IMG/VR virus record: IMGVR_UViG_2531839585_000005
Location: 1 to 7,397 of that record
DNA length: 7,397 bases
Reading direction: 5' to 3' (one strand)
Source of the DNA: a virus
Taxonomy: Duplodnaviria > Heunggongvirae > Uroviricota > Caudoviricetes
Each line of letters begins with the position of its first letter. Position 1 is the stretch's first letter. Below, in pieces: positions 1 to 7,397 of this stretch. The notes under the pieces are model-generated. The model ran no database searches, was not told the DNA's origin, and worked only from the letters and a program-made list of their open reading frames with translations. Position numbers and translations under genes: made by a program.

Positions 1-151
1 CTGGATGACATCCGGGCGGGACGCATTGAGCGCGCCATTTCACGCTGTCGCAATATCTGGGCGTCCCTGCCGGGTGCCGGTTACGGTCAGCGTGAGCATT
101 CACTGGAAAAACTGGTCACCGTCTGGCGTACCGCGGGGCGTACCGGCTTAA
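1..151 (+). CDS. K: Phage endolysin, C-terminal part (lambda R / P2 K-type lysozyme); 5' end lies outside the window, 3' end uncertain
   Basis: Frame +1 from position 1 reads ...DDIRAGRIERAISRCRNIWASLPGAGYGQREHSLEKLVTVWRTAG..., matching the conserved C-terminal motif of lambda R-type endolysins (NIWASLPGAGYGQ.EH). Frame +1 has no stop until 229-231 and runs into the lysA ATG at 166. TAA codons sit in frame +2 at 149-151 and 158-160, so a 1-bp indel near 133-140 has probably displaced the true stop. Not in the ORF track because the start is outside the window. Confidence 0.65.
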   Translation, partial: WMTSGRDALSAPFHAVAISGRPCRVPVTVSVSIHWKNWSPSGVPRGVPA

Positions 152-165
152 ACGGAGTAAACACC

Positions 166-589
166 ATGAAGAAATTATCCCTTTCACTGATGCTGAACGT
201 GTCGCTGGCGCTGTGCTGGCACTGTCCCTGATTTACCCGCAGAGCGTGGCCGTCAGTTTTGTCGCCACCTGGGCGATTCTGGGACGGTTATCTGTGTGGT
301 TGCCGGTGGTGTCGGCGTGTATGCCACGGAGTATGTACTTGAACGCTACGGGCGGGAGCTGCCACCGGAATCGCTGGCCGTGAAGATTGTCACGTCGCTG
401 TTTTTGCAGCCGGTGCCGTGGCGCAGGCGGTCAGTGGCTCTGGTAGTGATGGTGGCGACGTTTATCTCGCTGGTCGCTGCCGGGTGGATTTTTACCGCGC
501 TGATTTATCTCGTGGCATCGGTGTTCTTCCGGCTGATACGTACGGCCTGCTGTCAGCGTTTTGAGGGGCGGGAACCATGTCAAAGCTGA
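166..589 (+). pseudogene. lysA: lysA-like lysis-timing membrane protein, frame-disrupted as sequenced (needs all three + frames)
   Basis: ATG at 166 sits 7-8 nt downstream of GGAG and opens MKKLSLSLMLNVSLAL in frame +1, which stops at 229-231. The continuation ...VLALSLIYPQSVAVSFVATWAILG is in frame +3 (about 213-283). The remainder, VICVVAGGVGVYATEYVLERYGRELPPESLAVKIVTSLFLQPVPWRRRSVALVVMVATFISLVAAGWIFTALIYLVASVFF..., is frame +2 and corresponds to track ORF 296-589. Hydrophobic segments fit a small membrane protein. The stop overlaps the lysB start. Position after the endolysin matches the P2 order K-lysA-lysB-lysC. Confidence 0.6.
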
Positions 590-1147: not shown

Positions 1148-1571
1148 TGCCGTCACGGTGCTGAAAACACCGAATGCTGCGGATATTCGTGGATACGGGA
1201 GTATTGCCTCCACGCTGGCGGCGTCGTTGTCATTCGAAAAGCGTTACACGCTCAATGTCATTGTGACCGACTTTACCGGTGATTTTGACCTGCTCATCGT
1301 GCCGGTGCTGGCGTGGCTGCGGGTAAATCAGCCCGACATCATGACCACCGACGCAGGTCAGAAAAAGGGCTTCACGTTTTATGCAGACATCAACAATGAC
1401 AGCAGCTTTGATATCAGCATCAGCCTGATGCTGACCGAGCGAACGCTGGTCAGTGAGGTGGACGGCGCGCTGCATGTGAAGAATATCCCGGAACCTCCGC
1501 CGCCGGAGCCGGTCACCCGCCCGATGGAGCTGTATATCAATGGCGAACTCGTGAGTAAGTGGGATGAATGA
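1110..1571 (+). CDS. R: Tail completion protein R
   Basis: Intact 153-codon ORF MLKPDSLRRALTDAVTVLK...FEKRYTLNVIVTDFTGDFDLLIVPVLAWL...PEPPPPEPVTRPMELYINGELVSKWDE, recognised as P2 gpR-family. Overlaps the lysC 3' end. Its stop is fused to the S start (ATGAATGA). Confidence 0.85.
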   Translation: MLKPDSLRRALTDAVTVLKTPNAADIRGYGSIASTLAASLSFEKRYTLNVIVTDFTGDFDLLIVPVLAWLRVNQPDIMTTDAGQKKGFTFYADINNDSSFDISISLMLTERTLVSEVDGALHVKNIPEPPPPEPVTRPMELYINGELVSKWDE

Positions 1572-2016
1572 GTTTAAGCGTTTTGAAGACCGGCTGACCG
1601 GACTGATTGAGTCGCTGTCACCGTCAGGGCGTCGGCGACTGAGTGCCGAACTGGCGAAACGTCTGCGGCAGAGTCAGCAGCGTCGGGTGATGGCACAGAA
1701 AGCCCCGGATGGCACACCCTATGCGCCACGCCAGCAGCAGAGCGCCAGAAAAAAGACCGGTCGCGTTAAGCGAAAAATGTTTGCGAAACTTATCACCAGT
1801 CGTTTTTTGCATATCCGCGCCAGCCCTGAACAGGCATCAATGGAGTTTTACGGCGGGAAGTCACCGAAAATAGCCAGTGTGCATCAGTTCGGTCTGTCGG
1901 AAGAAACCCGGAAAGACGGTAAGAAAATTGATTATCCGGCGCGTCCTCTGCTCGGCTTTACCGGTGAGGATGTGCAGATGATTGAAGAGATTATCCTGGC
2001 TCACCTCGACCGTTAG
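1564..2016 (+). CDS. S: Tail completion protein S
   Basis: Intact 150-codon ORF MNEFKRFEDRLTGLIESLSPSGRRRLSAELAKRLRQSQQRRV...PLLGFTGEDVQMIEEIILAHLDR, recognised as P2 gpS-family. Start overlaps the R stop, consistent with translational coupling. Confidence 0.85.
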   Translation: MNEFKRFEDRLTGLIESLSPSGRRRLSAELAKRLRQSQQRRVMAQKAPDGTPYAPRQQQSARKKTGRVKRKMFAKLITSRFLHIRASPEQASMEFYGGKSPKIASVHQFGLSEETRKDGKKIDYPARPLLGFTGEDVQMIEEIILAHLDR

Positions 2017-2082
2017 TTGTGCCATTCCCGACACCTCATCGTTACATTGCCGCCGGTATGACCCGGCGGCATCCTTCCCGTT
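2017..2082 (+). promoter_or_regulatory. S-V intergenic region with an 8-bp GC-rich hairpin (2049-2056 / 2063-2070) and a TGT-N10-ACA partial dyad (2018-2033); candidate late-operon promoter or RNA element for the V-W-J-I-H-G operon
   Basis: GCCGCCGG (2049-2056) and CCGGCGGC (2063-2070) are exact reverse complements around a 6-nt loop, with no following T-run. TGT at 2018-2020 and ACA at 2031-2033 resemble the TGT-N12-ACA Ogr-box of P2 late promoters, but the spacing is 10 nt rather than 12. In P2 a late promoter lies upstream of V. Confidence 0.3.
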
Positions 2083-2710
2083 ATGAACACTCTCGCAAAT
2101 ATCCAGGAACTCGCGCGCGCACTGCGCAACATGATCCGCACCGGCCTTGTCGTCGAAACCAACCTTAAAGCCGGTCGCTGCCGTGTGCAGACCGGCGGCA
2201 TGTGCACCGACTGGCTTCAGTGGCTGACTCGTGCCGGGCGTTCGCGCACTGGTGGGCACCTTCCGTGGGGGACAGGTGCTGATTCTGGCCGTGGGCGGTG
2301 AACTCGACACGGCGTTCGTTCTGCCGGGGATTTATTCCGGTGATAACCCCGCGCCGTCTGCGTCGGCGGATGCCCTGCATATCCGTTTCCCTGACGGGGC
2401 GGTGATTGAGTATGAACCCGAAACCAGCGCACTCACGGTAAGCGGAATTAAAACGGCCAGCGTGACGGCTTCTGATTCTGTTACTGCCACGGTGCCGGTG
2501 GTCACGGTGAAAGCATCAACCCGCGTACCCTGGACACACCGGAGGTGGTTGCACCAACAGGCTGATTACGGCACGCTGGAAGTGCAGAAGGGCGGGACGA
2601 TGCGCGGCAACATTGAACACACCGGCGGTGAACTCTCATCAAACGGTAAGGTACTGCATACCCATAAACACCCCGGCGACAGCGGCGGCACAACCGGGAG
2701 CCCTCTATGA
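2083..2710 (+). pseudogene. V: Baseplate spike / central hub protein V, frame-disrupted as sequenced
   Basis: Frame +1 ORF 2083-2301 gives MNTLANIQELARALRNMIRTGLVVETNLKAGRCRVQTGGMCTDWLQWLTRAGRSRT..., the gpV N-terminus. The continuation WWAPSVG is in frame +3, then QVLILAVGGELDTAFVLPGIYSGDNPAPSASADALHIRFPDGAVIEYEPETSALTVSGIKTASVTASDSVTATVPVVTVKASTRV is in frame +2 (track ORF 2231-2710). A second cluster at about 2525-2575 passes through frames +1 (TLDTPEVV) and +3 (CTNRLIT) before returning to +2 (GTLEVQKGGTMRGNIEHTGGELSSNGKVLHTHKHPGDSGGTTGSPL). The stop overlaps the W start (ATGA). Confidence 0.8.
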
Positions 2711-3054
2711 CAGCGCGTTATCTCGGAATGAATCGCAGTGATGGCCTGACTGTCACTGACCTTGAGCATATCAGCCAGAGTATCGGCGATATCCTGCGCA
2801 CACCGGTCGGCTCACGGGTGATGCGTCGTGATTACGGCTCGTTGCTGGCGTCAATGATTGACCAGCCGCAGACCCCGGCGCTTGAGTTGCAGATTAAGGT
2901 CGCCTGTTACATGGCGGTGCTGAAATGGGAACCCCGCGTCACCCTGTCATCCGTCACCACTGAGCGCAGTTTTGACGGGCGAATGACAGTTACGTTAACC
3001 GGCCAGCACAACGACACCGGCCAGCCACTTTCGTTAACCATCCCTGTGAGTTGA
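2707..3054 (+). CDS. W: Baseplate wedge protein W (T4 gp25-like)
   Basis: Intact 115-codon ORF MTARYLGMNRSDGLTVTDLEHISQSIGDILRTPVGSRVMRRDYGSLLASMIDQPQTP...SLTIPVS, recognised as P2 gpW-family with the expected length. Start overlaps the V stop. Confidence 0.9.
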   Translation: MTARYLGMNRSDGLTVTDLEHISQSIGDILRTPVGSRVMRRDYGSLLASMIDQPQTPALELQIKVACYMAVLKWEPRVTLSSVTTERSFDGRMTVTLTGQHNDTGQPLSLTIPVS

Positions 3055-3058
3055 AACC

Positions 3059-3949
3059 ATGCCGATTATCGACCTGAACCAGCTACCTGCACCGGATGTG
3101 GTCGAGGAGCTGGACTTTGAAACCATTCTTGCTGAACGCAAGGCGACACTGATTTCTCTTTACCCGGAAGACCAGCAGGAGGCGGTCGCCCGTACCCTGA
3201 CGCTGGAATCTGAGCCTCTCGCCAAACTGCTGGAGGAAAATGCTTATCGTGAGCTTATCTGGCGTCAGCGTGTGAATGAGGCCGCACGGGCGGTGATGCT
3301 GGCCTGTGCCGCCGGTAATGACCTTGATGTGATTGGTGCCAATTACAACACCACGCGCCTGACTATCACCCCGGCAGATGATTCGACCATTCCGCCGACA
3401 CCGGCAGTGATGGAATCTGACACCGATTATCGTCTGCGTATTCAGCAGGCGTTTGAGGCTTAAGCGTCGCCGGGTCGGTGGGGCTATCAGTATCATGGTC
3501 GCAGTGCCGACGGGCGTGTCGCGGATATTCTGTACCAGTCCGTCTCCGGCCTGCGTCACCATCTCGTGCTGTCACGTGAAAATAACGGTGTGCATCCGAA
3601 GACTGCTGGCGGGTGCGTAACGCCCTTAATGGCGAGGACGTCAGGCCGGTGGCCGACCGCGTGACCGTGCAGTCTGCCGCCATGTTGAATACCAGATAAA
3701 CGCCACGCTTTACCTTTACCCTGGTCCCGAAAGGAACCCATCCGCGCGCCGCCGTGAAAAAACTGGAAGCTAATCACGGCACAGCACCGGCTGGGGCGGA
3801 CATCCGTCTGTCTGCCATTTATGCCGCTTTGCATGTGGAAGGGTGCAGCGTGTCGAACTGGCTGCACCCTGGCCGACATCGTGCTCAACAGTACGCAGGC
3901 GTCTTTCTGTACCGAATACCGCGTCGTGACCGGAGGCTCGGATGAGTGA
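3059..3949 (+). pseudogene. J: Baseplate protein J, intact for the first ~134 codons, then heavily frame-disrupted
   Basis: Frame +2 ORF 3059-3463 gives MPIIDLNQLPAPDVVEELDFETILAERKATLISLYPEDQQEAVARTLTLESEPLAKLLEENAYRELIWRQRVNEAARAVMLACAAGNDLDVIGANYNTTRLTITPADDSTIPPTPAVMESDTDYRLRIQQAFE and then hits TAA. Downstream, recognisable gpJ segments appear piecemeal across all three + frames: YQYHGRSADGRVADI, TSPSPACVTIS, VLSRENNGV, VRNALNGEDVRPVADRVTVQSAA, VEYQINATLYLYPGPE, VKKLEA, ITAQHRLGR, DIRLSAIYAALHVEG, LADIVLNSTQASFCTEYRVVTGGSDE. The final segment is in frame with a TGA at 3947-3949 that overlaps the I start. Full-length gpJ is about 300 aa as I recall. Confidence 0.8.
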
Positions 3950-4472
3950 TTCGCGACTGCTGCCGACCGGCTCATCACCGCTTGAAGTCGCCGCCGCAAA
4001 AGCCTGTGCGGAAATTGAAAAAACGCCGGTCAGTATTCGTGAGCTGTGGAACCCGGATACCTGTCCGGCAAATCTGCTGCCGTGGCTGGCGTGGGCGTTT
4101 TCGGTCGACAGGTGGGATGAAAAGTGGCCGGAAGCGACAAAACGCGCCGTTATCCGCGATGCCTATTTCATCCACTGTCATAAAGGCACAATAGGTGCAA
4201 TCCGGCGTGTGGTGGAGCCGCTCGGCTATCTCATCAACGTGACGGAGTGGTGGGAAAACAGTGACCCGCCCGGCACCTTCCGGCTTGATATTGGTGTACT
4301 GGAAAGCGGCATCACAGAGGCAATGTATCAGGAAATGGAACGGCTGATTGCTGATGCCAAACCTGCAAGCCGTCACCTTATTGGCCTGAACATTACCCGG
4401 GACATTCCCGGCTACCTGTTCGCCGGTGGTGTGGCTTACGACGGCGATGTAATTACGGTTTATCCCGGATAA
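3942..4472 (+). CDS. I: Baseplate protein I
   Basis: Intact 176-codon ORF MSDSRLLPTGSSPLEVAAAKACAEIEKTPVSIRELWNPDTCPANLLPWLAWAFSVDRWDEKWPEATKRAVIRDAYFIHCHKGTIGAIRRVVEPLGYLINVTEWWENSDPPGTFRLDIGVLESG..., recognised as P2 gpI-family with the expected length. Start overlaps the J 3' end. Confidence 0.9.
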   Translation: MSDSRLLPTGSSPLEVAAAKACAEIEKTPVSIRELWNPDTCPANLLPWLAWAFSVDRWDEKWPEATKRAVIRDAYFIHCHKGTIGAIRRVVEPLGYLINVTEWWENSDPPGTFRLDIGVLESGITEAMYQEMERLIADAKPASRHLIGLNITRDIPGYLFAGGVAYDGDVITVYPG

Positions 4473-4482
4473 GTGAGGAATA

Positions 4483-6648
4483 ATGAGCACAAAATTCAGA
4501 ACCGTTATCACCACTGCCGGTGCAGCAAAGCTGGCAGCGGCAACCGCGCCGGGAGGGCGGAAGGTCAACATTACCACGATGGCCGTCGGGGATGGCGGTG
4601 GTAAATTGCCTGTCCCGGATGCCGGACAGACCGGGCTTATCCACGAAGTCTGGCGACATGCGCTGAACAAAATCAGCCAGGACAAACGAAACAGTAATTA
4701 TATTATCGCAGAGCTGGTTATTCCGCCGGAGGTGGGCGGTTTCTGGATGCGTGAACTTGGCCTGTACGATGATGCGGGAACTAATTGCCGTGGCGAACAT
4801 GGCCGAAAGTTATAAGCCAGCCTTGCCGAAGGCTCAGGGCGTTCGCAGACCTGCGCATGGTCATCATCGTCAGCAGTGTGGCCTCAGTGGGCTGACCATT
4901 GACACCACAACGGTGATGGCACGCAGGATTACGTTGATGACAAAATTGCAGACATGAACAGTCACGACGTCACCCGACGCCTCGCTGACCGCAAAAGGTT
5001 TTACTCAGTTAAGCATGCGACCAACAGCACGTCTGAAACACTGGCCGCAACGCCGAAAGCGGTAAAGGCCGCGTATGACTTGCTAACGGGAAATAACGCC
5101 AGGAGCCACCAAGCGCGAAAAGGCCTTGTCCAGCTCAGTAGGCCACCAACAGCGATTCTGAAACGCTTGCGGCAACGCCAAAGGCGGTTAAGACAGCGTA
5201 TGACCTTGCTAACGGGAAATACACTGCACAGGAGCCACCACGCGCGAAAGGTCTTGTCAGCTCAGTAGCGCCACCAACAGGATTCTGAAACGCTGGCTGC
5301 AACATCAAAAGCGGTGAAGTCTGCCTATGACAATGCTGAAAAACGTCTTCAGAAAGATCAGAACGGTGCGGATATTCCGGGAAAGGATACCTTCACGAAA
5401 AATATCGGTGCCTGTCGTGCTTATAGCGGCGCTTTGAGCACTGAAGCCGGAAACTGGACAACCGCTCAGTTTATTGAATGGCTGGATTCCCGTGGTGCAT
5501 TTAATCATCCGTACTGGATGTGCAAAGGCTCCTGGTCATATGCAAATAACAAAATCATTACGGATACCGGATGTGGTGATATCCACCTGGCTGGTTGTGT
5601 CGTCGAGGTCATGGGAACTAAATCTGCAATCACTATTCGAGTGACCACGCCGACAACATCAAGTGGTGGCGGTACAACCAGCGCGCAATTCACTTACATA
5701 AATCATGGGGACGGCTACTCCCCCGGCTGGCGTCGTGACTGGAATCGTCAGGGCGACGCAATGACCGGAACGATTAATCAGGATGGCGGAAGCCAGAATG
5801 CCTATATGTCTACGGCCTTATGTTCAGGCACCAGAGGCGGCAAAAAATATCTCAGAAAGTTTCGTGGTGGAGAAGGAGACACTATCTGGCATGAAACAGT
5901 ACAGGGCGGGGTAATTCGCTGGGCGACAGGAAACTATGACGCTCAGGAAGAATTATCACTCAGCTCCGCTTATGGTCTCCGTTCAAGAGGTGAGATTACA
6001 TCACTCAGTGCTAATGGTCTGCGCATTGCTTATGGCAATTATGGATTCTTTATCAGGAATGATGGCGGCAGCACATATTTAATGCTGACGGCCTCTGGCG
6101 ATAAATTAGGCACATAGAACAATTTAAGACCGCTGACTATAAATAACGCCAAGGGCGCAGTATCAATGGGGCATGGCCTGAATGTTACTGGTGATATTGT
6201 CTCAAGTACCAAAGTACGTGCCGGTAGCGGGAAAAAATTCACGGTCAGCAGCAGTAATACATCCACGAAGGAAGCCGCATTCAATTTGTGGGGAAACTCA
6301 AGTCGTCCGGTGGTGGCTGAATTAGGTGATGATGCAGGCTGGCATTTTTACAGTCAGAGAAATACAGATAACAGCATCACGTTTGCTGTTAACGGTCAGG
6401 TATCACCATCTAACTATAGTAATTTTGATTCACGCTATGTCCGGGATATCCGGCTTGGTGGTGCTGCCACATACAAACCTGCGAACAATGGCATGACATG
6501 GACACATCAGGCACCGTCCGGGTGTGTATATTCCGGCATTATTGTTCAGGATACCGGCTCAAACTCTGCCGATAACATTGGTGGCATATATTACAGACCG
6601 GTGCAGAAATACATTAACGGGACTTGGTATAACGTGGCGCAGGTATAA
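4483..6648 (+). pseudogene. H: Tail fibre protein H (mosaic). 5' third is frame-disrupted, one in-frame TAG at 6115-6117, otherwise continuous
   Basis: ATG at 4483 preceded by GAGG. Frame +1 reads MSTKFRTVITTAGAAKLAAATAPGGRKVNITTMAVGDGGGKLPVPDAGQTGLIHEVWRHALNKISQDKRNSNYIIAELVIPPEVGGFWMRELGLYDDAGT, the gpH N-terminus. From about 4778 the continuation (LIAVANMAESYKPAL, LAEGSGR, RMVIIVSSVASV, LTIDTTTVMA, then the ATNSTSETLAATPKAVK repeats) is scattered over three frames up to about 5280. From 5281 to 6648 a single frame +1 runs cleanly apart from the TAG at 6115-6117 (track ORFs 5314-6117 and 6166-6648). The C-terminus ...NFDSRYVRDIRLG...RPVQKYINGTWYNVAQV is the conserved P2-H-type tail-fibre terminus. 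Confidence 0.85.
5006..5337 (+). repeat. Three imperfect direct tandem repeats of ~126 bp inside H, encoding a repeated tail-fibre motif
   Basis: Copy 1 about 5006-5130, copy 2 about 5131-5258, copy 3 (partial, diverging) about 5259-5337. Each encodes a variant of QLSSATNS(T/D)SETLAAT(P/S)KAVK(A/T/S)AYDLANGKYTAQEATTARKGLV. The copies differ by substitutions and 1-bp indels. Confidence 0.7.
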
Positions 6649-7179: not shown

Positions 7180-7213
7180 GTTGTATGAGTTCTGGTGTGA
7201 GCTTACACATCTA

Positions 7214-7255
7214 TGGCACAGAGTAAAGCCTAATCTGACAGTTCGCTCTGTGCCA
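7214..7255. repeat. Perfect 10-bp inverted repeat (TGGCACAGAG / CTCTGTGCCA) separated by 22 nt, in the A+T-rich region after G
   Basis: Positions 7214-7223 and 7246-7255 are exact reverse complements. No T-run follows, so it is not a canonical intrinsic terminator. It could be a protein-binding site, an RNA stem-loop at the operon 3' end, or the junction of inserted DNA. Confidence 0.5.
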
Positions 7256-7397
7256 AGAGCGGACGTTACTACTACTCGACCTAAAGTAAAGCAATTGTAC
7301 TCATTAAATAGTGGTAATTGGGTCTGGTGCTTAATCGAACGAAATCTCATGTTAGGCGAAAAAAACGTCTGAAAAATCGATTAACACATACACCTGT

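Follow-up and report, generated by a model that had tools for sequence, protein, structure and literature searches.

The window analysed in this work is a stretch of 7,397 bp in which the baseplate gene J stays open for only 134 codons before it breaks into short out-of-frame pieces. Judging from sequence comparisons, we are highly confident that this contig is an assembly artefact, in which two closely related P2-like prophages of the p0305293 ETEC clone have been merged into one chimeric consensus. Two near-identical prophage sequences fed each of the assemblies compared below, the deposited consensus matches neither of them, and in six blocks all columns at which the copies differ are missing. 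From these observations we infer the algorithmic step that dropped the bases, as well as the presence of both copies in one genome rather than in mixed samples. If the assembler merged two prophages and dropped the bases at which they differ, the scrambled J would be a database error and not biology.

The whole window is the late-gene block of a P2-like (Peduovirus) prophage, with the gene order lysozyme 3' end (K), lysA, lysB/lysC, R, S, V, W, J, I, H and G, and it is closed by 218 bp of DNA 3' of G. Exact protein matching identified it as the entire contig APZI01000619.1 of E. coli p0305293.13 (GCA_000356865.2), which is contig 619 of a fragmented draft assembly. At the DNA level it shares approximately 97% identity with P2-like phages and with prophages found in some 1,500 complete E. 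coli genomes. Isolate P0305293.1 is catalogued as an ETEC that was obtained in Bangladesh in 2011 from cholera-like disease and sequenced at GSCID. According to the project paper, which deals with multiple ETEC isolates per patient, the genomes were sequenced as paired ends on Illumina HiSeq 2000 and assembled with Celera Assembler, at a coverage above 200x and with 36-687 contigs per genome; the link between p0305293.13 and that paper rests on strain naming and sequencing centre, the isolate itself being absent from the main text. The best intact relative, E. coli 120899 (NZ_CP025916.1, 4154932-4162517; locus L001), served as the reference for global alignment.

The late-gene block has a few further features that can be mentioned here. 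The S-V intergenic region (window 2016-2083) contains a GC-rich inverted repeat (ccgccgg...ccggcgg, about 2050-2068), and several natural relatives (L005, L008-L010 and L012) have a 261-aa reverse ORF inserted at the S-V junction. An unrelated long contig (L003; GCA_949281755.1, CASDNL010000173.1, 1-13335) carries the lysA-to-I block twice in tandem, both blocks then running into a truncated H (278 and 291 aa). Here, two P2-like prophages may lie in tandem or one within the other, unless this is a further problem of assembly.

The deposited state of gene J and its downstream neighbour is as follows.

3059..3463, + strand: N-terminal ORF of gpJ, 134 aa, deposited as END27417.1; native to codon 132, then frameshifted into the TAA at 3461-3463.
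3455..3868, + strand: gpJ deletion block; 18 bases lost in 17 events, zero substitutions.
3869..3949, + strand: C-terminal segment of gpJ in the original frame; its stop TGA at 3947-3949 overlaps the gpI start.
3942..4472, + strand: gpI, intact, 176 aa.

The identity of the gene, which a sequence-only reading of the window had proposed as a P2-type gpJ, is borne out by end-to-end homology and by W-J-I synteny: W (GPW_gp25) lies at 2707-3054, J starts at 3059 and stops at 3947-3949, and I starts at 3942. An end-to-end alignment of the window's J (891 bp) and that of E. coli 120899 (909 bp) contains 10 substitutions besides the 18 deleted bases, and the J region is 97% identical to Peduovirus J genes. 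Up to codon 132 there are 2 amino-acid differences from the intact 302-aa gpJ of that strain (L001 3377-4285), and restoring the 18 bases gives a 302-aa J, again with two amino-acid differences. The same reading took the first 134 codons to be intact; the ORF does have that length and is ended by the premature TAA at 3461-3463, as it had stated, but its sequence is native only as far as codon 132.

Beyond this point the expectation of well over ten single-base deletions was correct. Losses follow window positions 3455, 3482, 3483, 3528, 3533, 3564, 3591, 3602, 3611 (2 bases), 3682, 3733, 3747, 3770, 3772, 3798, 3842 and 3868. The frame alternation that had been described is also there, the native frame switching 17 times between segments of 1-71 nt, and the last segment (3869-3949) is indeed in the original frame because the total loss is a multiple of three; its TGA overlaps the ATG of I at 3942. 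Between 3424 and 3986 the global alignment with the reference contains 0 substitutions and 0 insertions, which settles the earlier question whether substitutions are absent. The view that this pattern, with many 1-base deletions and no substitutions, is unlike pseudogene decay holds.

The intact relative of J matches PF04865 (Baseplate_J) over residues 118-261 (E = 3e-24), and it is this part of gpJ that is scrambled in the window. A single ORF of about 302 codons with a Baseplate_J domain was not found in the J of the window, in which only the 134-aa ORF is open, and this ORF has no Pfam match in the profile library used. We attribute the absence of a full-length J ORF to the assembly, not to the gene. 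The scrambled J occurs in 0 of 5,426 complete E. coli genomes; among these the best match to the window is 97.5% identical, a shortfall that includes the gaps themselves. An exact 35-mer spanning two of the deletions (3476-3510) has no match in genome, viral or metagenome contigs, and the 134-aa protein is on no other contig in a search of 153 billion gene positions. The exact sequence of gpI is very common in public assemblies, and that of gpW is likewise too common to single out sibling contigs.

Sibling contigs could be found via the aberrant N-terminal fragment of H (4483-4815), which is exactly identical in three other assemblies of the p0305293 series: AQCD01000118.1 (p0305293.8; L025), AQBY01000088.1 (L026) and AQCC01000103.1 (p0305293.7; L027). 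Whereas the sequence-only reading had described the damage as a matter of J, there are five more deletion-only blocks elsewhere on the contig, together with chimeric mixing of alleles.

134..282, + strand: deletion block with 4 single-base losses in lysA and the 3' end of the lysozyme gene (K).
1168..1194, + strand: gpR deletion block; 6 bases are missing but the frame is kept, so that R has 153 aa.
2228..2272, + strand: gpV deletion block; 5 bases lost, where the siblings L025 and L026 read CTG, G and A.
2526..2568, + strand: second gpV deletion block; 3 bases lost, the frame is restored and the aberrant peptide STRVPWTHRRWLHQQADYG results.
4781..5280, + strand: deletion block of the tail fibre gene H; 21 single bases lost and a 133-bp gap after 5141.

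In the gpR block the 6 lost bases are exactly all 6 positions that separate a common natural variant (L004 and others) from the reference, and these two have no other difference nearby. The resulting 153-aa R is on no other contig among 153 billion gene positions. The second gpV block is common to the window and the sibling p0305293.7, whereas here L025 agrees with the reference and L026 carries the alternative alleles. A homology search with the V fragment gave no more aberrant relatives past the known cluster of 4 members.

In H, the deletions upstream of the 133-bp gap (window 4781-5111, reference 4818-5162) are shared by all four assemblies. The reference H contains three tandem units of 132 bp (L001 5361-5756) with 12-20 differences between units, and the H of the window is without one such unit plus 1 base (window 5141/5142, reference 5193-5325). 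This gap is probably a collapse of the three-unit repeat; the alternative is real variation in copy number. Collapse of the units was also considered as the cause of most single-base losses in H and was rejected, since only some of the deleted sites differ between units; it therefore covers the 133-bp gap and not most of the single-base losses.

The deleted bases are far from randomly placed. Compared with the best intact relative, the window has 57 small deleted bases, 123 substitutions and essentially no insertions, and the substitutions avoid the deletion blocks altogether (0 within 1,283 bp of blocks vs. 123 in the other 6,303 bp). Of 56 deleted bases, 54 coincide with naturally polymorphic sites, as judged from 21 natural P2-like loci, while a permutation null gave 14 +/- 3.2 such sites with a maximum of 28 (5,000 runs). 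Codon position 3 accounts for 31 of the 40 unambiguous deletions (binomial p = 1.3e-8). The same holds for J on its own, where 17 of the 18 deletions are compatible with codon position 3 and all but one (reference position 3556) are at sites that vary naturally among P2-like J genes (10-locus panel).

Homopolymers, on the other hand, are not enriched: 41 of the 57 deleted bases are in runs of length 1, against a background of 56%, and runs of 3 or more contain just 3 of them. The idea that the deletions fall in homopolymers was not supported in J either (12 of 18 outside runs, 6 in 2-base runs, 0 in longer ones), and the examples that had been given near 3455-3490 were misread, as the actual changes are GAAGG to GAGG and GGGAGCC to GGGGC. 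A polymerase, a sequencer or decay cannot know which sites are synonymous and polymorphic; a consensus of two copies can.

The sibling assemblies show what these sites look like when they are not lost. At a common set of sites the three siblings carry the reference allele, a second allele or a gap, and the choice differs block by block. At least one sibling retains the base at 35 of the 57 window-deleted positions (27 with the reference allele, 17 with an alternative, 9 with both); the remaining 22, mostly in H, are absent from all four assemblies. J is cut at 134, 116, 202+38 and 115+102 aa across the four assemblies; two of these have an intact V. The J of L026 reads G, T and T at reference positions 3475, 3502 and 3505, and C, C and G at 3832, 3877 and 3904, and is gapped between, while that of L027 is gapped at reference 3381-3711 and has the reference alleles thereafter. 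One example is the gpV fragment ENH53887.1 of p0305293.7, which has the odd peptide of the window's block 2526-2568 and is otherwise broken differently. It can be rebuilt exactly from the window by deleting bases 2366, 2368, 2410, 2419 and 2428 and by placing the reference allele at 2341 and 2505. All seven of these sites are substitutions between window and reference, which means that the variable sites are bases in one assembly and gaps in another. The sequence-only reading was right to consider an artefact; the deletions mark copy-variable sites and the siblings are broken differently.

Two copies are also visible in the flanking DNA. Downstream of gpG the siblings enter two flanks: L025 is 100% identical to the reference flank, whereas the flanks of L026 and L027 are mutually identical and unrelated to the reference flank after 91 bp. 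The two different flanks indicate that two P2-like prophages were present. The closest complete ETEC genomes have 2-6 P2-like places; ETEC B7A carries two copies, and their J genes disagree at 12 of the 18 window-deleted sites and at only one other position. Both underlying J genes of the p0305293 clone are presumably intact, with 302 codons. A copy B of J was reconstructed from the commonest alternative alleles; it has no exact natural match (the best is 98.5%) and at least one of its alleles is wrong, reference position 3502 having been guessed as G where L026 shows T.

Outside the deletion blocks, alleles of the two copies are mixed at two places.

6104..6162, + strand: stretch of H in which alleles of two natural haplotypes alternate almost from base to base.
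7243..7256, + strand: immediately 3' of gpG, B-type alleles give way to A-type ones; the A-type flank continues to 7397.

The mixing in H amounts to 15 haplotype switches over 44 informative sites, compared with 1-10 in natural sequences, which keep one H type throughout the stretch 6104-6162. The premature TAG at 6115-6117 is composed of bases from TAT (A type) and TGG (B type), and for this reason the split of H into 5314-6117 and 6166-6648 is probably also artefactual. After gpG, the ten sites that distinguish the flanks read BBBBBAAAAA, and the gpG of the window itself is on no other contig in the 153 billion gene positions.

The contig ends within the variable stretch that separates G from the sheath gene (window 7180-7397; L025 9294-10229; L026 and L027 9183-10208). 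In the siblings this slot holds two different cargo genes, a 311-aa forward ORF and a 341-aa reverse ORF, for neither of which Pfam matches were found, and differing cargo genes occupy it in many of the fetched P2-like loci.

The following course of events would account for these observations. The two copies differ by only a few percent across the conserved late-gene block and by about 4% in the deletion blocks, and because they differ so little, short (100-base) Illumina reads of both would have been accepted into one layout. In some stretches the consensus would then emit no base at the conflicting columns, either by a gap call or through the loss of an ambiguity symbol, turning each SNP between the copies into a 1-base deletion; elsewhere it would pick either allele, which would produce the interleaved alleles and the chimeric stop codon. 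The error arose in consensus building and not in base calling. Consensus assemblies have been described as a mosaic of haplotypes, and Celera Assembler treats variant regions specially (Levy et al. 2007, PMC1964779). A description of a consensus step that drops differing columns was not found in the literature that was read, and against the artefact it must be said that a plain majority vote would choose an allele and not a gap. Moreover, the loss of the H block in all four assemblies would fit a shared real mutation in H too.

The most serious competitor, though still an unlikely one, retains the consensus artefact and derives the second haplotype from a mixed culture or from cross-sample contamination of reads. 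Many sibling isolates were sequenced together in one project, and each sibling contig enters one flank only, as such mixing would allow. Yet each of the four sibling assemblies shows chimeric states, at least two P2-like prophages are present in related complete ETEC genomes, and light contamination is not expected to give a mix of alleles even enough to break the consensus. Less probable still is an error at the level of reads, in which single-base deletions stay uncorrected because coverage is low or the platform (454, Ion Torrent, Nanopore) is prone to homopolymer errors. In its favour, the differences are deletion-only and clustered in blocks, and the contig is number 619 of a fragmented draft; such an error would, however, be blind to codon position and to sites that vary among phages, yet 54 of 56 deletions are at polymorphic sites and 41 of 57 are outside any run. 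The project paper moreover has Illumina at more than 200x, and a second real allele stands in the siblings at deleted sites. Unpolished long-read repeats, the first suspicion, were ruled out by the lack of homopolymer bias together with the Illumina-only project paper.

Real biology would require numerous independent 1-base deletions that knocked out J, V, R and H of the prophage in vivo, e.g. by error-prone or heteroduplex repair at mismatches between the prophages. We regard this as slightly less credible still than an error in the reads. In its favour, sibling assemblies have the H block and the second V block in common, and strain 2770900 shows the aberrant H fragment again, but a systematic error would fit the recurrence of the H block in all four assemblies and of the 2770900 fragment equally well. 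It is difficult to reconcile with more than 50 independent deletions that come without substitutions and almost all at synonymous polymorphic sites, with isolates of the same series that carry different subsets of the deletions and either of two intact alleles at those sites, and with the lack of any such J in the 5,426 complete E. coli genomes. We also know of no mechanism that removes exactly the mismatched base, and this counts against real mutation. A version in which recombination between the prophages forms a heteroduplex and some processing activity removes the mismatched base at each difference has in our opinion next to no chance of being true. If the deletions were real, the siblings would be snapshots of an ongoing inactivation of duplicated prophage genes.

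It is useful to compare the window with known systems. Its gene order S-V-W-J-I-H-G is like that around gpJ of phage P2, a baseplate wedge protein (PF04865) encoded in a V-W-J-I operon, while its J, in contrast to P2 gpJ, consists of a 134-aa ORF plus out-of-frame pieces. The chimeric consensus resembles the collapsed repeats and haplotype mosaics of overlap-layout-consensus assembly, with a shared layout, a consensus that matches neither copy and interleaved alleles; it differs from them in that its six blocks drop the differing columns outright instead of keeping one allele. Errors of 454, Ion Torrent, Nanopore or unpolished hybrid assemblies likewise fragment repeated prophage genes by clustered, frameshifting 1-base deletions, but those of the window are at SNPs between copies and not at random or low-complexity positions, in an Illumina-only project. 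Finally, tail and baseplate genes interrupted by frameshifts and a stop codon recall the decay of cryptic P2-like prophages. In contrast to such decay, the blocks are without substitutions, large deletions or insertion sequences and keep gene overlaps and spacing, and the damage differs among sibling isolates, which is not the case for inherited pseudogenes.

The artefact is present in at least three sibling assemblies, and its products have reached nr, RefSeq and UniRef: the J fragment END27417.1, the V fragments WP_432762450.1 and WP_024254718.1, an R without two residues (WP_001503645.1), a gpG that is on no other contig (WP_001503652.1) and EMW43775.1. E. coli 2770900, one further isolate from this sequencing project, likewise has a deposited aberrant H fragment of 52 aa, so the artefact may affect many of the project's assemblies. 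A combination of deletion-only blocks, a lack of substitutions, and losses at third codon positions and at known polymorphic sites could serve as a signature in screening. As far as sequence comparison can tell, the scrambled J is almost certainly a database error and not a mutated gene, and there would be nothing biologically new in it. The practical value of the finding is a warning on broken and chimeric proteins in databases, as such contigs could inflate the counts of defective prophages, pseudogenes and novel protein clusters.
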